A stretch of DNA of 8,817 bases. Source: a virus. Its lineage: Duplodnaviria > Heunggongvirae > Uroviricota > Caudoviricetes. The stretch lies in IMG/VR virus record IMGVR_UViG_2671181028_000014. One strand, written 5' to 3'. Position numbers and translations under genes: made by a program. Below the pieces are notes generated by a model. It had not been told where the DNA came from, did no database searches, and was given only the letters and a program-made list of their open reading frames with translations. The first letter of the stretch is position 1, and each line of letters begins with the position of its first letter. Of the stretch, positions 1-8,817 are shown piece after piece.

Positions 1-2979
1 GCCAGCGATGCAGAACGGTCTTCTGCCCGTATGCAGCGTTTTATGGAGCGTCAGACTCAGGCCGCCCGGCAGACAACGCAGGCGGCTTCTTCGGCTGCAA
101 CAGCCGCATCCGTCCATGCGCAGACGGTGGAGAAGAACGCACAGGCTCATGAACGCATGGCCCGCGAGGTGGAGAAAACCCGCCAGCGCATGGAGGCGCT
201 GAGCCAGAAAATGCGCGAGGAACAGGCGCAGGCCATGGCTCTGGCGGAGGCTCAGGATAAAGCGGCTGCTGCGTTTTATCGTCAGATTGACAGTGTGAAA
301 CAGGCCGGTGCGGGGCTGCAGGAATTACAGCGTATTCAGCAACAGATCCGACAGGCCAGAAACAGTGGCGGGATTGGTCAGCAGGATTATCTGGCGCTGA
401 TTTCTGAGGTTACGGCGAAAACCCGTGTTCTTACACAGGCTGAGGAAGAGGCTACCCGACAGAAAGTGGCGTTTATCCGTCAGCTTAAAGAGCAGGCAAC
501 CCGCCAGAATCTTTCTTCTTCTGAGTTGCTTCGTGCTAAGGCTGCCCAGCTGGGGGTAAGCAGTGCTGCAGAAGTGTATATCCGCAAAATGGAGCAGGCA
601 GGAAAAGCCACGCATTCGCTGGGTCTGAAAAGTGCAGCAGCCCGTCAGGAGATAGGCGTTCTGATAGGTGAACTGGCCCGCGGCAATTTAGGTGCGCTGA
701 GGGGATCCGGAATAACGCTGGCTAACCGTGCCGGGTGGATAGACACACTGATGTCACCGAAAGGCATGATGCCAGGAGCGGTTATTGGCGGTATTGCCGC
801 GGCTGTCTATGGTCTGGGTAAAGCCTGGTATGACGGTCAGAAGGAGGGGGAAGAATTTAACCGCCAGCTGTCGCTGACGGGGCATTATGCCGGAGTCACT
901 GCCGGGCAGCTGTGGACGCTCAGTCGTGCTATTTCCGGGAATGGTATCACGCAACATGCTGCAGCCGGTGCGCTGGCTCAGGTGGTGGGGAGTGGTGCAT
1001 TTCGTGGAAACGATATCGGTATGGTGGCGAGAGCTGCCGCACAGATGGAGCGATCGGTTGGCCAGTCGGTCAGCGATACCATAAATCAGTTTAAGCGGCT
1101 GAAGGATGATCCTGTAAATGCCGCGAAGGCTCTGGACAATGAGCTGCATTTTCTTACTGCCACTCAGCTTGAGCAGATACGCGTCCTTGGGGAGCAGGGG
1201 CGGTCCAGTGATGCTGCACGGATAGCCATGTCTGCACTGGCAGAGGAAACCGGTCGGCGTACTGCGGATATTGATAATAACCTCAATGCGCTTGGCAGTA
1301 CGCTGAAGTATCTGTCTGATTTGTGGAGTCGTTTCTGGGATGCGGCCATGAATATTGGTCGTGAAGACTCGCTGGATGAACAGATTGCCGCTTTACAGGA
1401 GAAAGTGTCGCGGGCGAAAAGACTCCCCTGGACGGCATCATCTTCTCAGGTTGAATACGATCAGCAGCGTCTTAACGATCTTCAGGAGAAAAAACGCCAG
1501 AAGGATTTGCAGGATGCAAAAGAGCAGGCAGAGCGGAATTATCAGGAGCAACAGAAACGCCGTAATGCTGAAAATGCTGCACTGAACCGGATGAATGAAA
1601 CGGAAGCAGCACGACATCAGCGTGAAATAGCGCGTATTAATGCCATGCAGTACGCCGATCAGGCTGTCAGGGATGCGGCGATACAACGTGAAAATGAACG
1701 TTACGAGAAAGCCCTGGCATCCGGTAAGAAAAAAACACGCGAAACCCGTAATGATGAGGCCACCCGGTTATTGCTGCAGTACAGTCAGCAACAGGCACAG
1801 GTGGAAGGACAGATTGCTGCTGCCAGACAGTCAGCAGGCATTGCCACGGAAAGGATGACAGAAGCGCATAAACAGCTTCTGGCTCTGCAGCAGCGCATCA
1901 GCGACCTGGACGGGAAAAAACTGACGGCAGATGAAAAGAGTGTGCTGGCCCGTAAAGATGAACTGATTCAGGCACTGACGCTGCTGGATGTAAAACAGCA
2001 GGAGCTTCAGAAACAGACGGCACTCAACGAGCTGAAGAAAAAAACAATTCAGCTGACCAGTCAACTGGCTGAAGAAGAGCGCGCTCAGCGTCAGCAACAT
2101 GACCTGGATATCGCCACGGTGGGTATGGGTGATCAGCAGCGGCAGCGATATCAGGTACAACTGAGTCTTCGCCAGAAATACCAGCAACAGCTGGAGCAGT
2201 TGAGGCGGGATAGTGAGCAGAAAGGGATATATAACACTGATGACTACAGAAAGTCCGAGCAGGCGCTGACGGAGAGCCTGAACCGACAACTGAATGAGAA
2301 TCGCCGTTACTGGCAACAGCTTGAAGTTGTGCAGGGTAACTGGAAAAACGGTGCTATGCGGGCGTTTCAGAATTTCACGGCAGATGCGGATAATGCGGCA
2401 GGCACTGCTGAGCAGATGCTTACAGCGGCATTTAACAGTGCAGGTAATGCACTGGCAACGTTCTGTACTACCGGAAAACTGAACTTCAAATCTTTTACCG
2501 CCTCGCTCCTTTCTGATCTGGCAAAAATCATGGCTCAGATGTCCATGATGCAGGCAGTTAAGGGGATTGGTTCGGCGTTTGGCTGGGGGAGTGCAGCAAC
2601 TGCCAGTGTGACGCCCAATGCTGATGGTGGTGTTTATCAGTCTGCTGATTTGAGTCGCTACAGTGGCACGGTGGTTAACCGTCCGACGTTTTTTGCTTTT
2701 GCAAAAGGTGCAGGTGTGATGGGGGAAGCTGGGCCTGAAGCCATTCTGCCTCTGCGTCGTGGTGCTGACGGTAAGCTGGGGGTTGTGGCGGATATTGGTG
2801 GTTCAGGTATGGCGATGTTTGCCCCGCAGTACAACATCGAGATCAATAACGATGGCACGAACGGGCAGATAGGTCCGGCTGCCCTGAAGGTGGTTTATGA
2901 CCTCGGGAAAAAAGCAGCAGCGGACTTTATGCAACAGCAGTCCCGTGATGGTGGTCTGTTCTCCGGAGGTGGACGATGA
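1..2979 (+). CDS. H: Tail tape-measure protein (lambda gpH family), 5'-truncated by window edge
   Basis: Frame 1 is open from nt 1 to the TGA at 2977-2979, so the ATG at 31 is an internal Met (no SD upstream). Long Q/A/E/R-rich coiled-coil region, a hydrophobic segment (MMPGAVIGGIAAAVYGL, nt ~766-828), and a Gly-rich C-terminus ending ...NNDGTNGQIGPAALKVVYD...RDGGLFSGGGR, which closely matches my recollection of the lambda gpH C-terminus. Sits immediately upstream of M with an ATGA stop/start overlap. Confidence 0.9.
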   Translation, partial: ASDAERSSARMQRFMERQTQAARQTTQAASSAATAASVHAQTVEKNAQAHERMAREVEKTRQRMEALSQKMREEQAQAMALAEAQDKAAAAFYRQIDSVKQAGAGLQELQRIQQQIRQARNSGGIGQQDYLALISEVTAKTRVLTQAEEEATRQKVAFIRQLKEQATRQNLSSSELLRAKAAQLGVSSAAEVYIRKMEQAGKATHSLGLKSAAARQEIGVLIGELARGNLGALRGSGITLANRAGWIDTLMSPKGMMPGAVIGGIAAAVYGLGKAWYDGQKEGEEFNRQLSLTGHYAGVTAGQLWTLSRAISGNGITQHAAAGALAQVVGSGAFRGNDIGMVARAAAQMERSVGQSVSDTINQFKRLKDDPVNAAKALDNELHFLTATQLEQIRVLGEQGRSSDAARIAMSALAEETGRRTADIDNNLNALGSTLKYLSDLWSRFWDAAMNIGREDSLDEQIAALQEKVSRAKRLPWTASSSQVEYDQQRLNDLQEKKRQKDLQDAKEQAERNYQEQQKRRNAENAALNRMNETEAARHQREIARINAMQYADQAVRDAAIQRENERYEKALASGKKKTRETRNDEATRLLLQYSQQQAQVEGQIAAARQSAGIATERMTEAHKQLLALQQRISDLDGKKLTADEKSVLARKDELIQALTLLDVKQQELQKQTALNELKKKTIQLTSQLAEEERAQRQQHDLDIATVGMGDQQRQRYQVQLSLRQKYQQQLEQLRRDSEQKGIYNTDDYRKSEQALTESLNRQLNENRRYWQQLEVVQGNWKNGAMRAFQNFTADADNAAGTAEQMLTAAFNSAGNALATFCTTGKLNFKSFTASLLSDLAKIMAQMSMMQAVKGIGSAFGWGSAATASVTPNADGGVYQSADLSRYSGTVVNRPTFFAFAKGAGVMGEAGPEAILPLRRGADGKLGVVADIGGSGMAMFAPQYNIEINNDGTNGQIGPAALKVVYDLGKKAAADFMQQQSRDGGLFSGGGR

Positions 2980-3305
2980 AAACCTTCCGCTGGAAAGTGA
3001 AACCCGGTATGGATGTGGCTTCGGCCCCTTCCGTAATAAAGGTGCGCTTTGGTGATGGCTATTCTCAGCGTGCGCCTGCCGGGCTGAACGCTGACCTGAA
3101 AACGTACAGCGTGACGCTTTCTGTTCCCCGCGAGGAGGCCACGGCACTGGAATCGTTTCTGGCTGAGCACGGGGGCTGGAAGGCCTTTCTGTGGACGCCG
3201 CCTTATGGCTACCGGCAGATAAAGGTGACCTGCGCAAAATGGTCGTCGCGGGTCAGTATGTTGCGTGTTGAGTTCAGCGCAGAGTTTGAACAGGTGGTGA
3301 ACTGA
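2976..3305 (+). CDS. M: Minor tail protein M (tail tip assembly)
   Basis: 109-aa ORF; GGAGG at 2965-2969 six nt upstream of the ATG; start overlaps the tape-measure stop (ATGA at 2976-2979). Sequence (MKTFRWKVKPGMDVASAP...) and length match lambda gpM as I recall it. Confidence 0.92.
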   Translation: MKTFRWKVKPGMDVASAPSVIKVRFGDGYSQRAPAGLNADLKTYSVTLSVPREEATALESFLAEHGGWKAFLWTPPYGYRQIKVTCAKWSSRVSMLRVEFSAEFEQVVN

Positions 3306-4003
3306 TGCAGAATATCCGACAGGAAACACTGAATGAATGCACCCGTGCGGAGCAGTCTGCCAGCGTGGTGCTCTGGGAAATCGATCTGACAGAGGTCGGC
3401 GGAGATCGTTATTTCTTCTGTAATGAGCAGAACGAAAAAGGTGAACCAGTCACCTGGCAGGGGCGGCAGTATCAGGCCTATCCCATTCAGGGAAGTGGAT
3501 TTGAGATGAACGGCAAAGGAGCCAGTGCAAGGCCAACGCTGAAAGTCTCTAATCTGCACGGCATGGTCACCGGGATGGCGGAAGACCTGCAGAGTCTGGT
3601 CGGAGGAACGGTGGTCAGGCGTAAGGTTTACGCCCGTTTTCTGGATGCGGTGAACTTCGTCAACGGAAATAGCGATGCCGATCCGGAGCAGGAGGTGATC
3701 AGCTGCTGGCGCATCGAGCAGTGCAGCGAACTGAGCGCGGTGAGCGCCTCTTTTGTACTGTCCACGCCGACGGAAACGGATGGCGCTGTTTTTCCGGGGC
3801 GCATCATGCTGGCCAACACCTGTACCTGGACCTATCGCGGTGATGAGTGCGGTTATAGCGGTCCGGCTGTCGCGGATGAATATGACCAGCCGACGTCCGA
3901 TATCACGAAAGATAAATGCAGTAAATGCCTGAGTGGCTGTAAGTTTCGCAATAATGTCGGCAACTTTGGCGGCTTCCTTTCCATTAACAAACTTTCGCAG
4001 TAA
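3305..4003 (+). CDS. L: Minor tail protein L (tail tip; Fe-S cluster-binding Cys motif)
   Basis: 232-aa ORF; AGGTGG at 3292-3297 upstream; start ATG overlaps the M stop by 1 nt (TGATG at 3303-3307). C-terminal Cys cluster (CTWTYRGDECGYSG ... CSKCLSGCKF). Length and sequence match lambda gpL as I recall it. Confidence 0.92.
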   Translation: MQNIRQETLNECTRAEQSASVVLWEIDLTEVGGDRYFFCNEQNEKGEPVTWQGRQYQAYPIQGSGFEMNGKGASARPTLKVSNLHGMVTGMAEDLQSLVGGTVVRRKVYARFLDAVNFVNGNSDADPEQEVISCWRIEQCSELSAVSASFVLSTPTETDGAVFPGRIMLANTCTWTYRGDECGYSGPAVADEYDQPTSDITKDKCSKCLSGCKFRNNVGNFGGFLSINKLSQ

Positions 4004-4007
4004 TCCC

Positions 4008-4751
4008 ATGACAGAGACAGAATCAGCGATTCTGGCGCACGCCCGGCGATGTGCGCCAGCGGAGTCGTGCGGCTTCGTGGTGAGAACGCCGGAGGGGGAA
4101 AGATATTTTCCCTGCGTGAATATCTCCGGTGAGCCGGAGGAGTATTTCCGGATGTCGCCGGAGGACTGGCTGCAGGCAGAAATGCAGGGGGAGATTGTGG
4201 CGCTGGTCCACAGTCACCCCGGTGGTCTGCCCTGGCTGAGTGAGGCCGATCGGCGGCTGCAGGTGCAGAGTGATTTGCCGTGGTGGCTGGTCTGCCGGGG
4301 GGAGATTCACAAATTCCGCTGTGTGCCACATCTGACAGGACGGCGCTTTGAGCACGGGGTGACGGACTGTTACACGCTGTTCCGGGATGCCTACCATCTG
4401 GCGGGAATTGATATGCCGGATTTTGAGCGTGAGGATGACTGGTGGCGCAACGGTCAGAACCTTTACCTGGACAATATGGCGGTCACCGGCTTTTACCAGG
4501 TGCCCCTGTCCTCTGCACAGCCGGGCGATATGCTGCTGTGCTGCTTTGGTGCGTCGGTGCCGAATCATGCCGCCATTTACTGTGGTGACGGCGAGCTGCT
4601 GCACCATATTCCTGAACAACTGAGCAAACGAGAGAGGTATACCGACAAATGGCAGCGACGCACACACTCCCTCTGGCGTCACCGGGCATGGCACGCATCT
4701 GCCTTTACGGGGATTTACAACGATTTGGTCGCCGCATCGACCTTCGTGTGA
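4008..4751 (+). CDS. K: Tail assembly protein K (N-terminal MPN/JAMM-like domain + C-terminal NlpC/P60-like domain)
   Basis: ORF in frame 3. JAMM signature HSHPGGLPWLSEAD (H-x-H-x7-S-x2-D) with an upstream Glu (CAPAESCGF); C-terminal region has a candidate NlpC/P60 catalytic Cys (GVTDCYTLF) and His (VPNHAAIY). Start chosen as the first ATG after the L stop (4008) so that the MPN domain is complete; the lambda-style annotated start corresponds to the in-frame ATG at 4152. No strong SD before 4008, so the start is uncertain. Confidence 0.85.
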   Translation: MTETESAILAHARRCAPAESCGFVVRTPEGERYFPCVNISGEPEEYFRMSPEDWLQAEMQGEIVALVHSHPGGLPWLSEADRRLQVQSDLPWWLVCRGEIHKFRCVPHLTGRRFEHGVTDCYTLFRDAYHLAGIDMPDFEREDDWWRNGQNLYLDNMAVTGFYQVPLSSAQPGDMLLCCFGASVPNHAAIYCGDGELLHHIPEQLSKRERYTDKWQRRTHSLWRHRAWHASAFTGIYNDLVAASTFV

Positions 4752-5290
4752 AAACGGGGGCTGAAGCCATCCGGGCGCTGGCCACGCAGCTTCCGGCGTT
4801 TCGCCAGAAACTGAATGAGGGCTGGTATCAGGTGCGCATTTCCGGGCGTGATGCAGGCGAAAACGAATTATCTGCCCGTCTTAATGAGCCGCTGGCAAAT
4901 GGTGCCGTGATCCACATCGTACCGCGTCTGGCGGGTGCCAAAAGTGGCGGTATTTTTCAGGCAGTGCTGGGTGCGGCGCTAATTGCTACGGCAATCTGGA
5001 TGCCGGGGCTTAGTATTGTTGCAAGTAATCTCATGTTCTCTCTTGGGGCAGGTATGGTTTTAGGCGGTGTTGCGCAGATGCTGGCACCGAAAGCCAAAAC
5101 GCCTAAAGTGTCAGCCACTGATAACGGTAAGCAAAATACCTATTTTTCCTCATTGGATAACATGGTTGCCCAGGGCAATGTCCTGCCTGTTCTGTACGGT
5201 GAAATGCGCGTGGGGTCACGTGTGGCATCTCAGGAGATCAGCACGGCAGATGAAGGGGATGGTGGTCAGGTTGTGGTAATTGGGCGGTAA
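4649..5290 (+). CDS. I: Tail assembly protein I (ubiquitin-like N-terminus, hydrophobic central region)
   Basis: 213-aa ORF starting MAATHTLPLASPGMARICLYGDL...; GAGG at 4634-4637 upstream; overlaps the 3' end of K by 103 nt in a different frame, as I recall for lambda K/I. Ends ...EGDGGQVVVIGR, then TAA at 5288-5290. Confidence 0.9.
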   Translation: MAATHTLPLASPGMARICLYGDLQRFGRRIDLRVKTGAEAIRALATQLPAFRQKLNEGWYQVRISGRDAGENELSARLNEPLANGAVIHIVPRLAGAKSGGIFQAVLGAALIATAIWMPGLSIVASNLMFSLGAGMVLGGVAQMLAPKAKTPKVSATDNGKQNTYFSSLDNMVAQGNVLPVLYGEMRVGSRVASQEISTADEGDGGQVVVIGR

Positions 5291-5350
5291 TATTATTTAC
5301 TCATGTTCTAACTGATTTAATATTTATATCGAACACTGATAATTATTCTG
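5291..5350 (+). promoter_or_regulatory. Putative sigma70-type promoter region for the inserted lipoprotein gene (AT-rich)
   Basis: ~70% AT intergenic stretch immediately upstream of the lipoprotein gene. Weak -35-like TTTACT (5296-5301) and -10-like TAATAT (5318-5323) with a 16-nt spacer; other -10-like hexamers (TATTTA, TATATC) nearby. By eye only, no experimental support. Confidence 0.3.
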
Positions 5351-5362
5351 TTGGTTAGCTAT

Positions 5363-5701
5363 ATGAACAAAACGATTTTATTCTGCACGATTATTGCCTT
5401 AACAGGATGTAAATCTTTGGATTACGTAAAATCCGGCAAGCCTGTAATGGAAGGTAATTCATTAAAAAATATTGATGAATTGTCAGGCTGCATATCTAGA
5501 CAATGGGCTGGTAATGGAACACCTATAACATCCATTCCTATTGAGAATGGGGTAAGCCTTTTAGTTCCACAGGCTATGGGTGGGTATGATGTTGTGCTTG
5601 ATATCAAAAAAGCAGGAAATGGCAGTAGTTTTACTCTTTATGAACGCGTACCAGCATTAACGCCAAAAATTTTTGCTGATAGTGTTAATGCATGTAAATA
5701 A
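5363..5701 (+). CDS. Predicted outer-membrane lipoprotein of unknown function (moron between I and J)
   Basis: 112-aa ORF from the ATG at 5363 (the ORF track begins at an upstream TTG, 5351). N-terminus MNKTILFCTIIALTG|C has a basic n-region, hydrophobic h-region and an L-T-G-C lipobox; the residue after the lipidated Cys is Lys, not Asp, implying Lol sorting to the outer membrane. Gene is ~30-35% GC against >55% in the flanking tail genes. Followed by an intrinsic terminator. No SD is obvious. Confidence 0.8.
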   Translation: MNKTILFCTIIALTGCKSLDYVKSGKPVMEGNSLKNIDELSGCISRQWAGNGTPITSIPIENGVSLLVPQAMGGYDVVLDIKKAGNGSSFTLYERVPALTPKIFADSVNACK

Positions 5702-5724
5702 TAGTTAATCCTGCCGTAACTCAT

Positions 5725-5755
5725 GAGCCGCCTTTTGGGCGGCTTTGTTGTTTAT
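5725..5755 (+). terminator. Rho-independent terminator downstream of the lipoprotein gene
   Basis: GC-rich hairpin AGCCGCC (5726-5732) / GGCGGCT (5738-5744), 7 bp stem with a 5-nt loop (TTTTG), followed directly by a T-rich tract TTTGTTGTTTAT (5745-5755). Lies 24 nt after the lipoprotein stop and ~13 nt before the J ribosome-binding site. Confidence 0.7.
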
Positions 5756-5764
5756 GGAGTGTGA

Positions 5765-8817
<3,053 letters not shown>

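Follow-up and report, generated by a model that had tools for sequence, protein, structure and literature searches.

A conserved terminator-type hairpin directly upstream of tail gene J in lambdoid prophages, and the accessory genes inserted before it

Results

The tail-tip genes and the insert between I and J

The window, by which we mean the whole 8.8-kb stretch of DNA that was analysed, is the tail-tip part of the late operon of a lambdoid prophage, and every gene in it lies on the + strand. Matches to Pfam and PHROG, together with the RefSeq annotation of a near-identical prophage in E. coli DEC9B, give the gene order H-M-L-K-I-[lipoprotein]-J (Table 1). The DEC9B prophage, which is integrated beside dusA and carries a Q-family antiterminator gene 5' of its lysis, head and tail genes, differs from the window at 42 positions in total and is identical to it over positions 5100-6000. 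Lysogens carrying this prophage include E. coli DEC9B (NZ_CP074760 464373-464849) and APEC O1 (NC_008563 1363288-1363765), and 4323 E. coli genomes gave a match to the junction segment (window 5100-6000). All 42 differences fall in two patches, 36 in K (4303-4551) and six in J (6658-6772), a distribution that suggests small mosaic recombination tracts within otherwise identical DNA. The start of gene I is placed where RefSeq places it in the DEC9B prophage (window 4688), the reading frame being open from an ATG at 4649, and the stop codon of this gene (TAA, 5288-5290) forms the fixed left boundary of the insertion site described below. The start of gpJ annotated in DEC9B corresponds to window position 5768, and the N-terminus of the protein matches Pfam FNIII-A_GpJ and other J domains.

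Table 1. Features of the window (coordinates are window positions)
Feature	Position	Strand	Basis
Tape measure gene H	to 2979, 5' end outside the window	+	
M	2976-3305	+	
L	3305-4003	+	
K	to 4751	+	
Tail assembly gene I	4688-5290	+	Pfam Lambda_tail_I 1.7e-23; PHROG 32; DEC9B annotation
A+T-rich spacer, 5' end of the cassette	5291-5362	+	G+C 0.32-0.40 vs 0.55-0.60 in flanks
Inserted accessory gene ('moron'), 112-aa predicted lipoprotein	5363-5701	+	Translation; PHROG 914 5.7e-33
Terminator-type hairpin	5725-5745	+	Folding, terminator scoring, positional homology to lambda 15463-15482
Interrupted T-tract TGTTGTTTAT	5746-5755	+	T-weight 3.79; T-rich tails kept in all three J lineages
J ribosome-binding site and start codon	5756-5770	+	GGAG 5756-5759, 8 nt 5' of ATG 5768-5770
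Tail tip / host-specificity gene J	5768-8817, runs off the window end	+	Pfam, PHROG, DEC9B annotation

The gap between I and J measures 477 nt in the window, compared with 59-61 nt in 109 of 115 junctions with a lambda-like J, and is occupied by a gene that lambda and most of its relatives do not have. The insert has a G+C content of 0.36, and positions 5300-5800 range from 0.32 to 0.42 against 0.55-0.60 in the flanks. The product is a predicted lipoprotein (lipobox MNKTILFCTIIALTG/C), annotated as a hypothetical protein in DEC9B; searches gave no Pfam match and no significant NCBIfam match, and its database homologues are named only 'hypothetical' or 'lipoprotein'. Its AlphaFold model scores well (pLDDT 84), with a weak best match in the PDB (Francisella Flpp3, E = 9e-3, TM 0.52). 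The cassette is present at 95-100% identity in 337 of 5426 complete E. coli genomes (about 6%), which looks like one insertion lineage.

A promoter belonging to the lipoprotein gene would have to fall in the 72-nt spacer between I and that gene, at the 5' end of the cassette. Scanning it (5291-5362) identified no + strand sigma-70 site at a threshold of 9 of 12; by eye the best candidates reach 8 of 12, a score that is uninformative in DNA of 28-36% G+C (TTTACT-16-TAATAT at 5296-5323; also GATAAT at 5338-5343). Inspection by eye of the sequences upstream of lipoprotein homologues at other junctions likewise revealed no shared promoter motif.

These homologues (about 50% identity; about 30% for Fraca, L133) occur at three junctions of lambdoid tail operons: between the chaperone gene T and the tape measure gene in Enterobacter, i.e. 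at the HK97 gene-15 site (L417, 2501-2842); between K and I in a metagenomic prophage (L419, 2501-2866) and in Fraca (L133, 1501-1836); and between I and J, where the window gene (5363-5701) lies. In every case a hairpin and T-run come next, immediately upstream of the following gene's ribosome-binding site.

A stable hairpin and T-tract precede J

Positions 5725-5755 read GAGCCGCCT-TTT-GGGCGGCTT, then TGTTGTTTAT. The stem comprises nine pairs (six G-C, one A-U and two G.U) around a 3-nt UUU loop (5734-5736), of which the outer half consists of G5725.U5745, A5726-U5744, G5727-C5743, C5728-G5742 and C5729-G5741, and the inner half of G5730-C5740, C5731-G5739, C5732-G5738 and U5733.G5737. Within it a 7-bp core, AGCCGCC/GGCGGCT (5726-5732/5738-5744; six G-C pairs and one A-U pair), is closed at its ends by the G.U and U.G pairs. 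The sequence-only reading had placed a 7-bp GC-rich hairpin and T-tract at 5725-5755, between the moron and J, and this is what we find there; its expectation of a stable fold is also borne out, with RNAfold giving -15.4 kcal/mol for 5722-5748 against -6.5 +/- 2.1 for shuffled sequences (z = -4.2), none of 200 of which folds as well.

The hairpin ranks first in a terminator-like consensus scan of the window. That scan returned 14 sites against 8 +/- 3 expected by chance, a total near enough to chance for the scan alone to be weak evidence, and sites were therefore scored separately with a discriminant d of the d'Aubenton-Carafa type, which combines hairpin and T-tail (ViennaRNA energies, threshold 0). 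With d = 20.1 the hairpin is the sole + strand site in the window with d of 5 or more, and none of 100 dinucleotide-preserving shuffles reached 20 (shuffle maximum 9.3). By comparison, d is 29.6 for lambda t_oop and 40.4 for the hairpin 3' of lom.

The element occupies non-coding DNA on the + strand, 24 nt past the lipoprotein stop codon (5699-5701), and the J ATG follows after 22 nt. The end of the T-tract abuts the J Shine-Dalgarno sequence, the two being linked by the motif TTTATGGAG that is found in lambda-like phages. Counted with T5744 and T5745 the tract reads UUUGUUGUUUAU and is interrupted, with nine T in the 12 bases 5744-5755. Its T-weight of 3.79 is close to that of the corresponding lambda element described below (3.81), whereas lambda t_oop and the lom 3' hairpin lie at 4.5-4.9. 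An interrupted U-tract of this kind is weaker than a canonical one, and termination is expected to be real though not maximal; its efficiency may be modest.

Two other identities for the element were considered and rejected. A terminator acting on the antisense strand would require a T-rich tail, and the minus-strand tail ATGAGTTACGG is not T-rich. A prophage-encoded anti-sRNA of the AgvB/AsxR type from EHEC does not fit the position, as AgvB and AsxR sit at the PR' moron site and not between I and J (PMC4104026). Rfam gave no match at gathering thresholds for the window and four related I-J loci, and at E <= 1 returned two sub-threshold chance matches only.

Lambda has the same element at its empty site

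In lambda (J02459) genes I and J are 60 nt apart with no gene between them, and positions 15463-15482 read AAACCGCC-TGCG-GGCGGTTT, then TGTCATTTATGGAG (also given as TGTCATTTATGGAGCGTGAGGAATG). As in the window, this hairpin follows the I stop codon and precedes the J Shine-Dalgarno sequence, and its register to the J ATG is the same. The two elements share a common frame of eight pairs, five of which are identical, and their 3' flanks agree at 20 of 22 bases; the terminator score of the lambda element (18.6) is close to that of the window. They differ at stem position 3 (A-U in lambda, G-C in the window), in the loop (UGCG in lambda, UUU(UG) in the window) and in their distance from the I stop, which is 18 nt in lambda and 434 nt, including a gene, in the window. 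The U-tract is interrupted in both lambda-like versions (UUUGUUGUUUAU; UUUUGUCAUUUAU). The consensus terminator scan omits the lambda hairpin, apparently because it lengthens the stem greedily, by G.T pairs that run into the T-tract, and our own script was used instead.

A literature search found no paper describing or testing a lambda I-J terminator, nor any on 3' ends or termination efficiencies at that position. The element is nevertheless visible in the lambda sequence of 1982, and to find an intrinsic terminator downstream of an accessory gene is in itself textbook for lambdoid late operons.

On the + strand of the lambda late operon, terminator-grade hairpins lie at 6101-6114, 7164-7179, 15466-15479, 18920-18935 and 19613-19632 (L256). 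Nearly all such hairpins are intercistronic (D-E, E-FI, I-J, J-lom and 3' of lom), one more being located inside C (4487-4502).

The hairpin is widespread at I-J junctions

To place the window element in a wider context, loci of three J lineages were gathered through the J N-terminus and the distance from I stop to J start was measured. For lambda-like J, the 109 of 115 junctions mentioned above are empty sites, and the hairpin is present in all those listed individually. The HK97-like J set comprises 81 junctions, of which about 59 are empty (52-54 nt) and 22 carry inserts (gaps of 317-1031 nt); empty or filled, all 81 have GCCACC-N4-GGTGGC-TTTTTTT-ATGG directly 5' of J. The HK97-type hairpins, with 7-8 G+C-rich pairs and 7-8 uninterrupted T, are textbook terminators. 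For J of the BP-4795/Stx-like lineage, the junctions examined with the common gap of 234-260 nt have CAGGCA[C/T]CC-TCCG-GG[G/A]TGCCTG-TTGTTTTTG approximately 45 nt before J.

Two further classes of Stx-like junction (340-343 nt and 851 nt) have no hairpin within 90 nt of J, and ES18, with an I-J gap of 9 nt, is without one. On this comparison the I-J hairpin is widespread and positionally fixed, yet not universal, and its absence from ES18 and the two Stx-like classes indicates that it is not required for expression of the tail genes.

Several observations on these loci stand apart from the survey counts. The common Stx-like gap (234-260 nt; L134 1255-1500, L357 and others) contains no convincing ORF and two terminator-like hairpins, one just past the I stop (AAAAAAATCCCGCAG...CTGCGGGAA) and the other being that approximately 45 nt before J, with no Rfam match; such a gap might encode a small RNA or be what is left of a cargo since lost. 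In the HK97-like Fraca and HK544, near-identical hairpin/T-run motifs (AAGCCACC-N4-GGTGGCTT-TTTTTATGG) stand on both sides of gene I (L133 1855-1880 and 2510-2535; L136 770-795 and 1430-1455), and these direct repeats could mediate cassette exchange. Lambda-like J N-termini with 98-99% protein identity to that of the window also appear on short, often low-coverage contigs in many assemblies of unrelated bacteria, including a Bacillota MAG, Kitasatospora, Bradyrhizobium, Paenibacillus, Shewanella and others (L003, L009-L022, L024-L026, L028 and others), which most likely represent contamination with laboratory lambda DNA.

Pairing in the stem is conserved

When 36 distinct hairpins of the lambda and HK97 types are aligned stem to stem and in register, 95.1% of alignment cells pair normally; shifting the 3' partners by 1-3 columns lowers this figure to 28-57%. 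Two of the eight pairs show compensatory A-U to G-C exchange: at position 3, 23 hairpins have G-C and 10 have A-U; at position 6, 22 have A-U and nine have G-C; and all four combinations of the two are present. Other, one-sided stem changes are nearly all G.U wobbles, while the loops of this set comprise 15 different sequences. The Stx-type (BP) hairpin shows a separate C-G to U-A exchange. These compensatory changes mostly split whole lineages and so represent few independent events, and the alignment assumes that lambda-type and HK97-type hairpins are homologous.

Among 102 empty lambda-type junctions, two of 16 stem columns are polymorphic, both being C to U opposite G such that a G.U pair is kept, against 17 of 44 other non-coding columns, a marginal difference (Fisher p = 0.066). 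Taken together, changes that preserve pairing and stems that are better conserved than the neighbouring non-coding DNA point to selection on RNA or DNA structure, and not on mere sequence identity. A T-rich tail is kept throughout the three J lineages, which goes beyond what a plain RNA-stability hairpin would require. The window element thus has the features by which intrinsic (Rho-independent) terminators are recognised: a G+C-rich stem (about 5-14 bp) with a short loop (3-8 nt), a U-tract, a non-coding site on the sense strand, a score above chance, and conservation.

Unrelated cargos end at the first base of the stem

At least 10 unrelated cargos occupy the slot between I and J, and all of them lie between the I stop and the base at which the stem begins. 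Each insert is associated with a single copy of the hairpin, at its right end; on the left it is bounded by the I stop codon, where no repeat is present. Besides the lipoprotein gene, the slot holds an 84-aa ORF, ORFs of 190-200 aa and of 279-309 aa, a 238-aa UPF0257 secreted protein and, on the reverse strand, a 210-aa ORF (L277) and sodC (Pfam Sod_Cu; L036, a Citrobacter prophage). L036 keeps the lambda-type hairpin before J despite the orientation of its sodC, and next to a reverse-strand cargo the hairpin cannot act as the terminator of that cargo. Its presence at empty sites and beside reverse-strand cargo identifies it as a backbone element upstream of J and not as part of the cargo; on this comparative evidence the stretch from I stop to hairpin is an insertion hotspot, and the hairpin the resident boundary element of the I-J junction. 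Reverse-strand sodC (Cu/Zn superoxide dismutase) is also found at this junction in Stx-like prophages, and the insert loci (L036 1787-2500; L376 1650-2500; L310, L277, L329, L270 and L266) include several ORFs without a family match.

The exact window allele, GAGCCGCCTTTTGGGCGGCTTTG, occurs in 59 viral contigs, every one of which has the lipoprotein gene, and all 60 loci with the lipoprotein gene have the window hairpin allele, then J. This allele (GAGCCGCC-TTTT-GGGCGGCTT) may have arisen by mutation of the resident hairpin or may have replaced it together with the cassette; its position and predicted function are the same either way.

Discussion

A resident terminator, predicted to be overridden by Q

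Our preferred reading, to which we assign a probability of roughly 0.6, is that the hairpin and T-tract represent, at this locus, an intrinsic terminator resident at the I-J boundary of lambda-, HK97- and Stx-phage-like tail operons, and predicted to be overridden by Q. The functional part of this proposal draws on the anatomy of the element, its conservation and the established behaviour of Q-modified polymerase, by which intrinsic terminators of the late operon are read through (PMC7547250). Polymerase without the Q modification would release its transcript in the U-tract at approximately 5750-5754, just 5' of the J Shine-Dalgarno sequence. In a lysogen, transcription from upstream, whether initiated at a promoter of the inserted accessory gene or at spurious promoters in the tail genes, would thereby be kept from J and the genes beyond. 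Upon induction, Q-modified polymerase from the late promoter would read through and J would be made; given the Q-family gene in the DEC9B prophage, such lytic read-through is the standard expectation. Cargo landing between the I stop and the hairpin would acquire a terminator automatically, which would fit the many unrelated cargos in this slot, and if an inserted gene has its own promoter, its transcript would end just before the J ribosome-binding site.

What the element conveys about the lipoprotein gene is a separate matter. The sequence-only reading had taken the hairpin as support for autonomous, lysogenic-conversion expression of the inserted gene, and this step fails: the same element is present in lambda and in the empty junctions of the lambda-like (109 of 115) and HK97-like (about 59 of 81) lineages, and is kept beside cargo on the reverse strand, e.g. 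the sodC of L036. As the hairpin would be present anyway, it is uninformative as to whether the lipoprotein gene forms a transcription unit of its own. What stands of the earlier interpretation is a conserved, sense-strand, terminator-type hairpin in the late tail operon before J, together with the mechanistic picture, the standard moron model (PMC3594210) combined with Q antitermination, as the likeliest account of how the hairpin acts on transcription from upstream; what falls is its use as evidence for independent transcription of the lipoprotein gene.

Alternative explanations

One alternative concerns the origin of the hairpin rather than its function, namely that it arrived with a self-contained cassette of promoter, gene and terminator and is present because the lipoprotein gene needs it. 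The classical definition of a moron includes its own terminator (PMC3594210), and the strict linkage of the window allele to the lipoprotein gene (59 contigs; 60 loci) is what such an origin would give. The window hairpin moreover differs from the empty-site allele by one deletion, a compensatory A to G/T to C pair and loop changes, while the 3' 22 nt differ at two positions, a pattern of divergence that would fit a recombination joint within the 3' arm or the T-tract; and the lipoprotein homologues at L417 (T-tape measure) and at L419 and Fraca (K-I) are each followed by a hairpin and T-run. Against this, more than 160 junctions have a hairpin of the same architecture and register at the empty site, at least eight unrelated HK97-like cargos, those on the reverse strand included, all end at the GCCACC...GGTGGC hairpin, and each insert has one copy of the hairpin, at its right end. 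We regard a cassette-borne origin as unlikely; even if the allele came in by exchange, a terminator was present at the site beforehand, and the hairpin would not be diagnostic of autonomous expression. We judge it about equally improbable that the role of the element is mainly post-transcriptional, with a hairpin 10 nt 5' of the J Shine-Dalgarno sequence and a U-rich leader that insulate or enhance translation of J, or with a stem that shields the upstream mRNA, e.g. by guarding the I (or lipoprotein) message from 3'-exonucleases after processing and so setting the ratios of tail proteins. Stabilising intercistronic hairpins occur in other operons, and a translation enhancer is another possible explanation of the U-rich stretch before the Shine-Dalgarno sequence. 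Such a role would account for the fusion of hairpin, T-run and Shine-Dalgarno sequence into a conserved block in two lineages (TTTATGGAG in lambda-like and TTTTTTTATGGG in HK97-like phages) and for the location of nearly all terminator-like lambda late hairpins in intercistronic gaps beside genes of very different copy-number needs (D-E, E-FI, I-J and J-lom); furthermore, Q should neutralise termination during lytic growth, so any lytic role would have to be post-transcriptional. The Stx-like hairpin, however, lies approximately 45 nt from the J start, away from the Shine-Dalgarno sequence, and still keeps its T-tract, and the HK97-type versions are terminators of textbook form.

A role confined to recombination appears less probable still. 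Here the hairpin would be shared sequence at which cassettes are swapped, or the leftover terminator of a lost cargo, without a regulatory role of its own. Homology between filled and empty sites, and between one cargo and another, sets in precisely with the first stem base, near-identical hairpins flank gene I in Fraca and HK544, and T4-type PeSL cassettes (promoter plus stem-loop) mediate modular shuffling of this sort (PMC2839356). Mere boundary sequence would not explain stems that are conserved above neighbouring non-coding DNA and whose changes preserve pairing, and the motif is found at the right boundary only, the left being the I stop without a repeat, with no conserved promoter motif alongside. 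A related suggestion, which we offer tentatively as a possibility we consider doubtful on balance, is that the I-J hairpin acts as a conserved 'landing pad', a fixed right boundary at which unrelated cargos are repeatedly captured and exchanged. Exchange might proceed by short-homology recombination between terminator hairpins, in the manner of PeSLs, and the phage would keep the hairpin because insertions there become harmless to J expression. The occurrence of one lipoprotein family at T-H, K-I and I-J, ending each time at such a hairpin, fits this suggestion.

Implications

The comparative result, i.e. a hairpin of the phage backbone conserved between I and J with a recurrent site for cargo 5' of it, is the part of this analysis that we consider modestly interesting. 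It offers a rule for the annotation of lambdoid prophages, in which a terminator-type hairpin is to be looked for just 5' of the J ribosome-binding site and the region from the I stop up to that hairpin treated as a hotspot for accessory genes, sodC among them. At this locus the hairpin is unusable as evidence for a lysogenic-conversion gene with its own expression, for which a mapped promoter or expression data are needed. If termination and its suppression by Q both hold, the I-J element would serve as a natural insulator through which insertions into the tail operon become tolerable, and such a role would help to explain why accessory genes gather at a few fixed junctions.

Comparison with known systems

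The T4-type PeSLs resemble the I-J arrangement in that conserved stem-loops border variable, non-essential genes of a hyperplastic slot, and different cargos share the same boundary hairpin (PMC2839356). PeSLs have a strong conserved promoter as well as a stem-loop, and have them on both sides of the cargo, whereas at the I-J junction the motif marks the right boundary only and no promoter motif is shared; the coupled conserved promoter and flanking copies that define a PeSL-like mobile cassette are thus absent here.

A moron is a promoter, gene and terminator inserted between two late genes (PMC3594210). Like the lambdoid morons HK97 gene 15, lambda lom and bor, the window insert is an extra gene between genes that are adjacent in relatives, has a lower G+C content (0.36 vs 0.55-0.60) and is followed by a terminator-type hairpin. 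It departs from the classical moron in that its terminator is not private to the insert, an equivalent being present at the empty site. Its promoter candidates reach 8 of 12.

A further parallel is the Q-antiterminated late operon itself (PR'-tR'), in which, as is predicted here, an intrinsic terminator lies within a unit that Q-modified polymerase reads. The two differ in place: tR' stands directly after the promoter, as the decision point for late transcription, whereas the putative I-J terminator lies approximately 15 kb downstream, deep in the operon.
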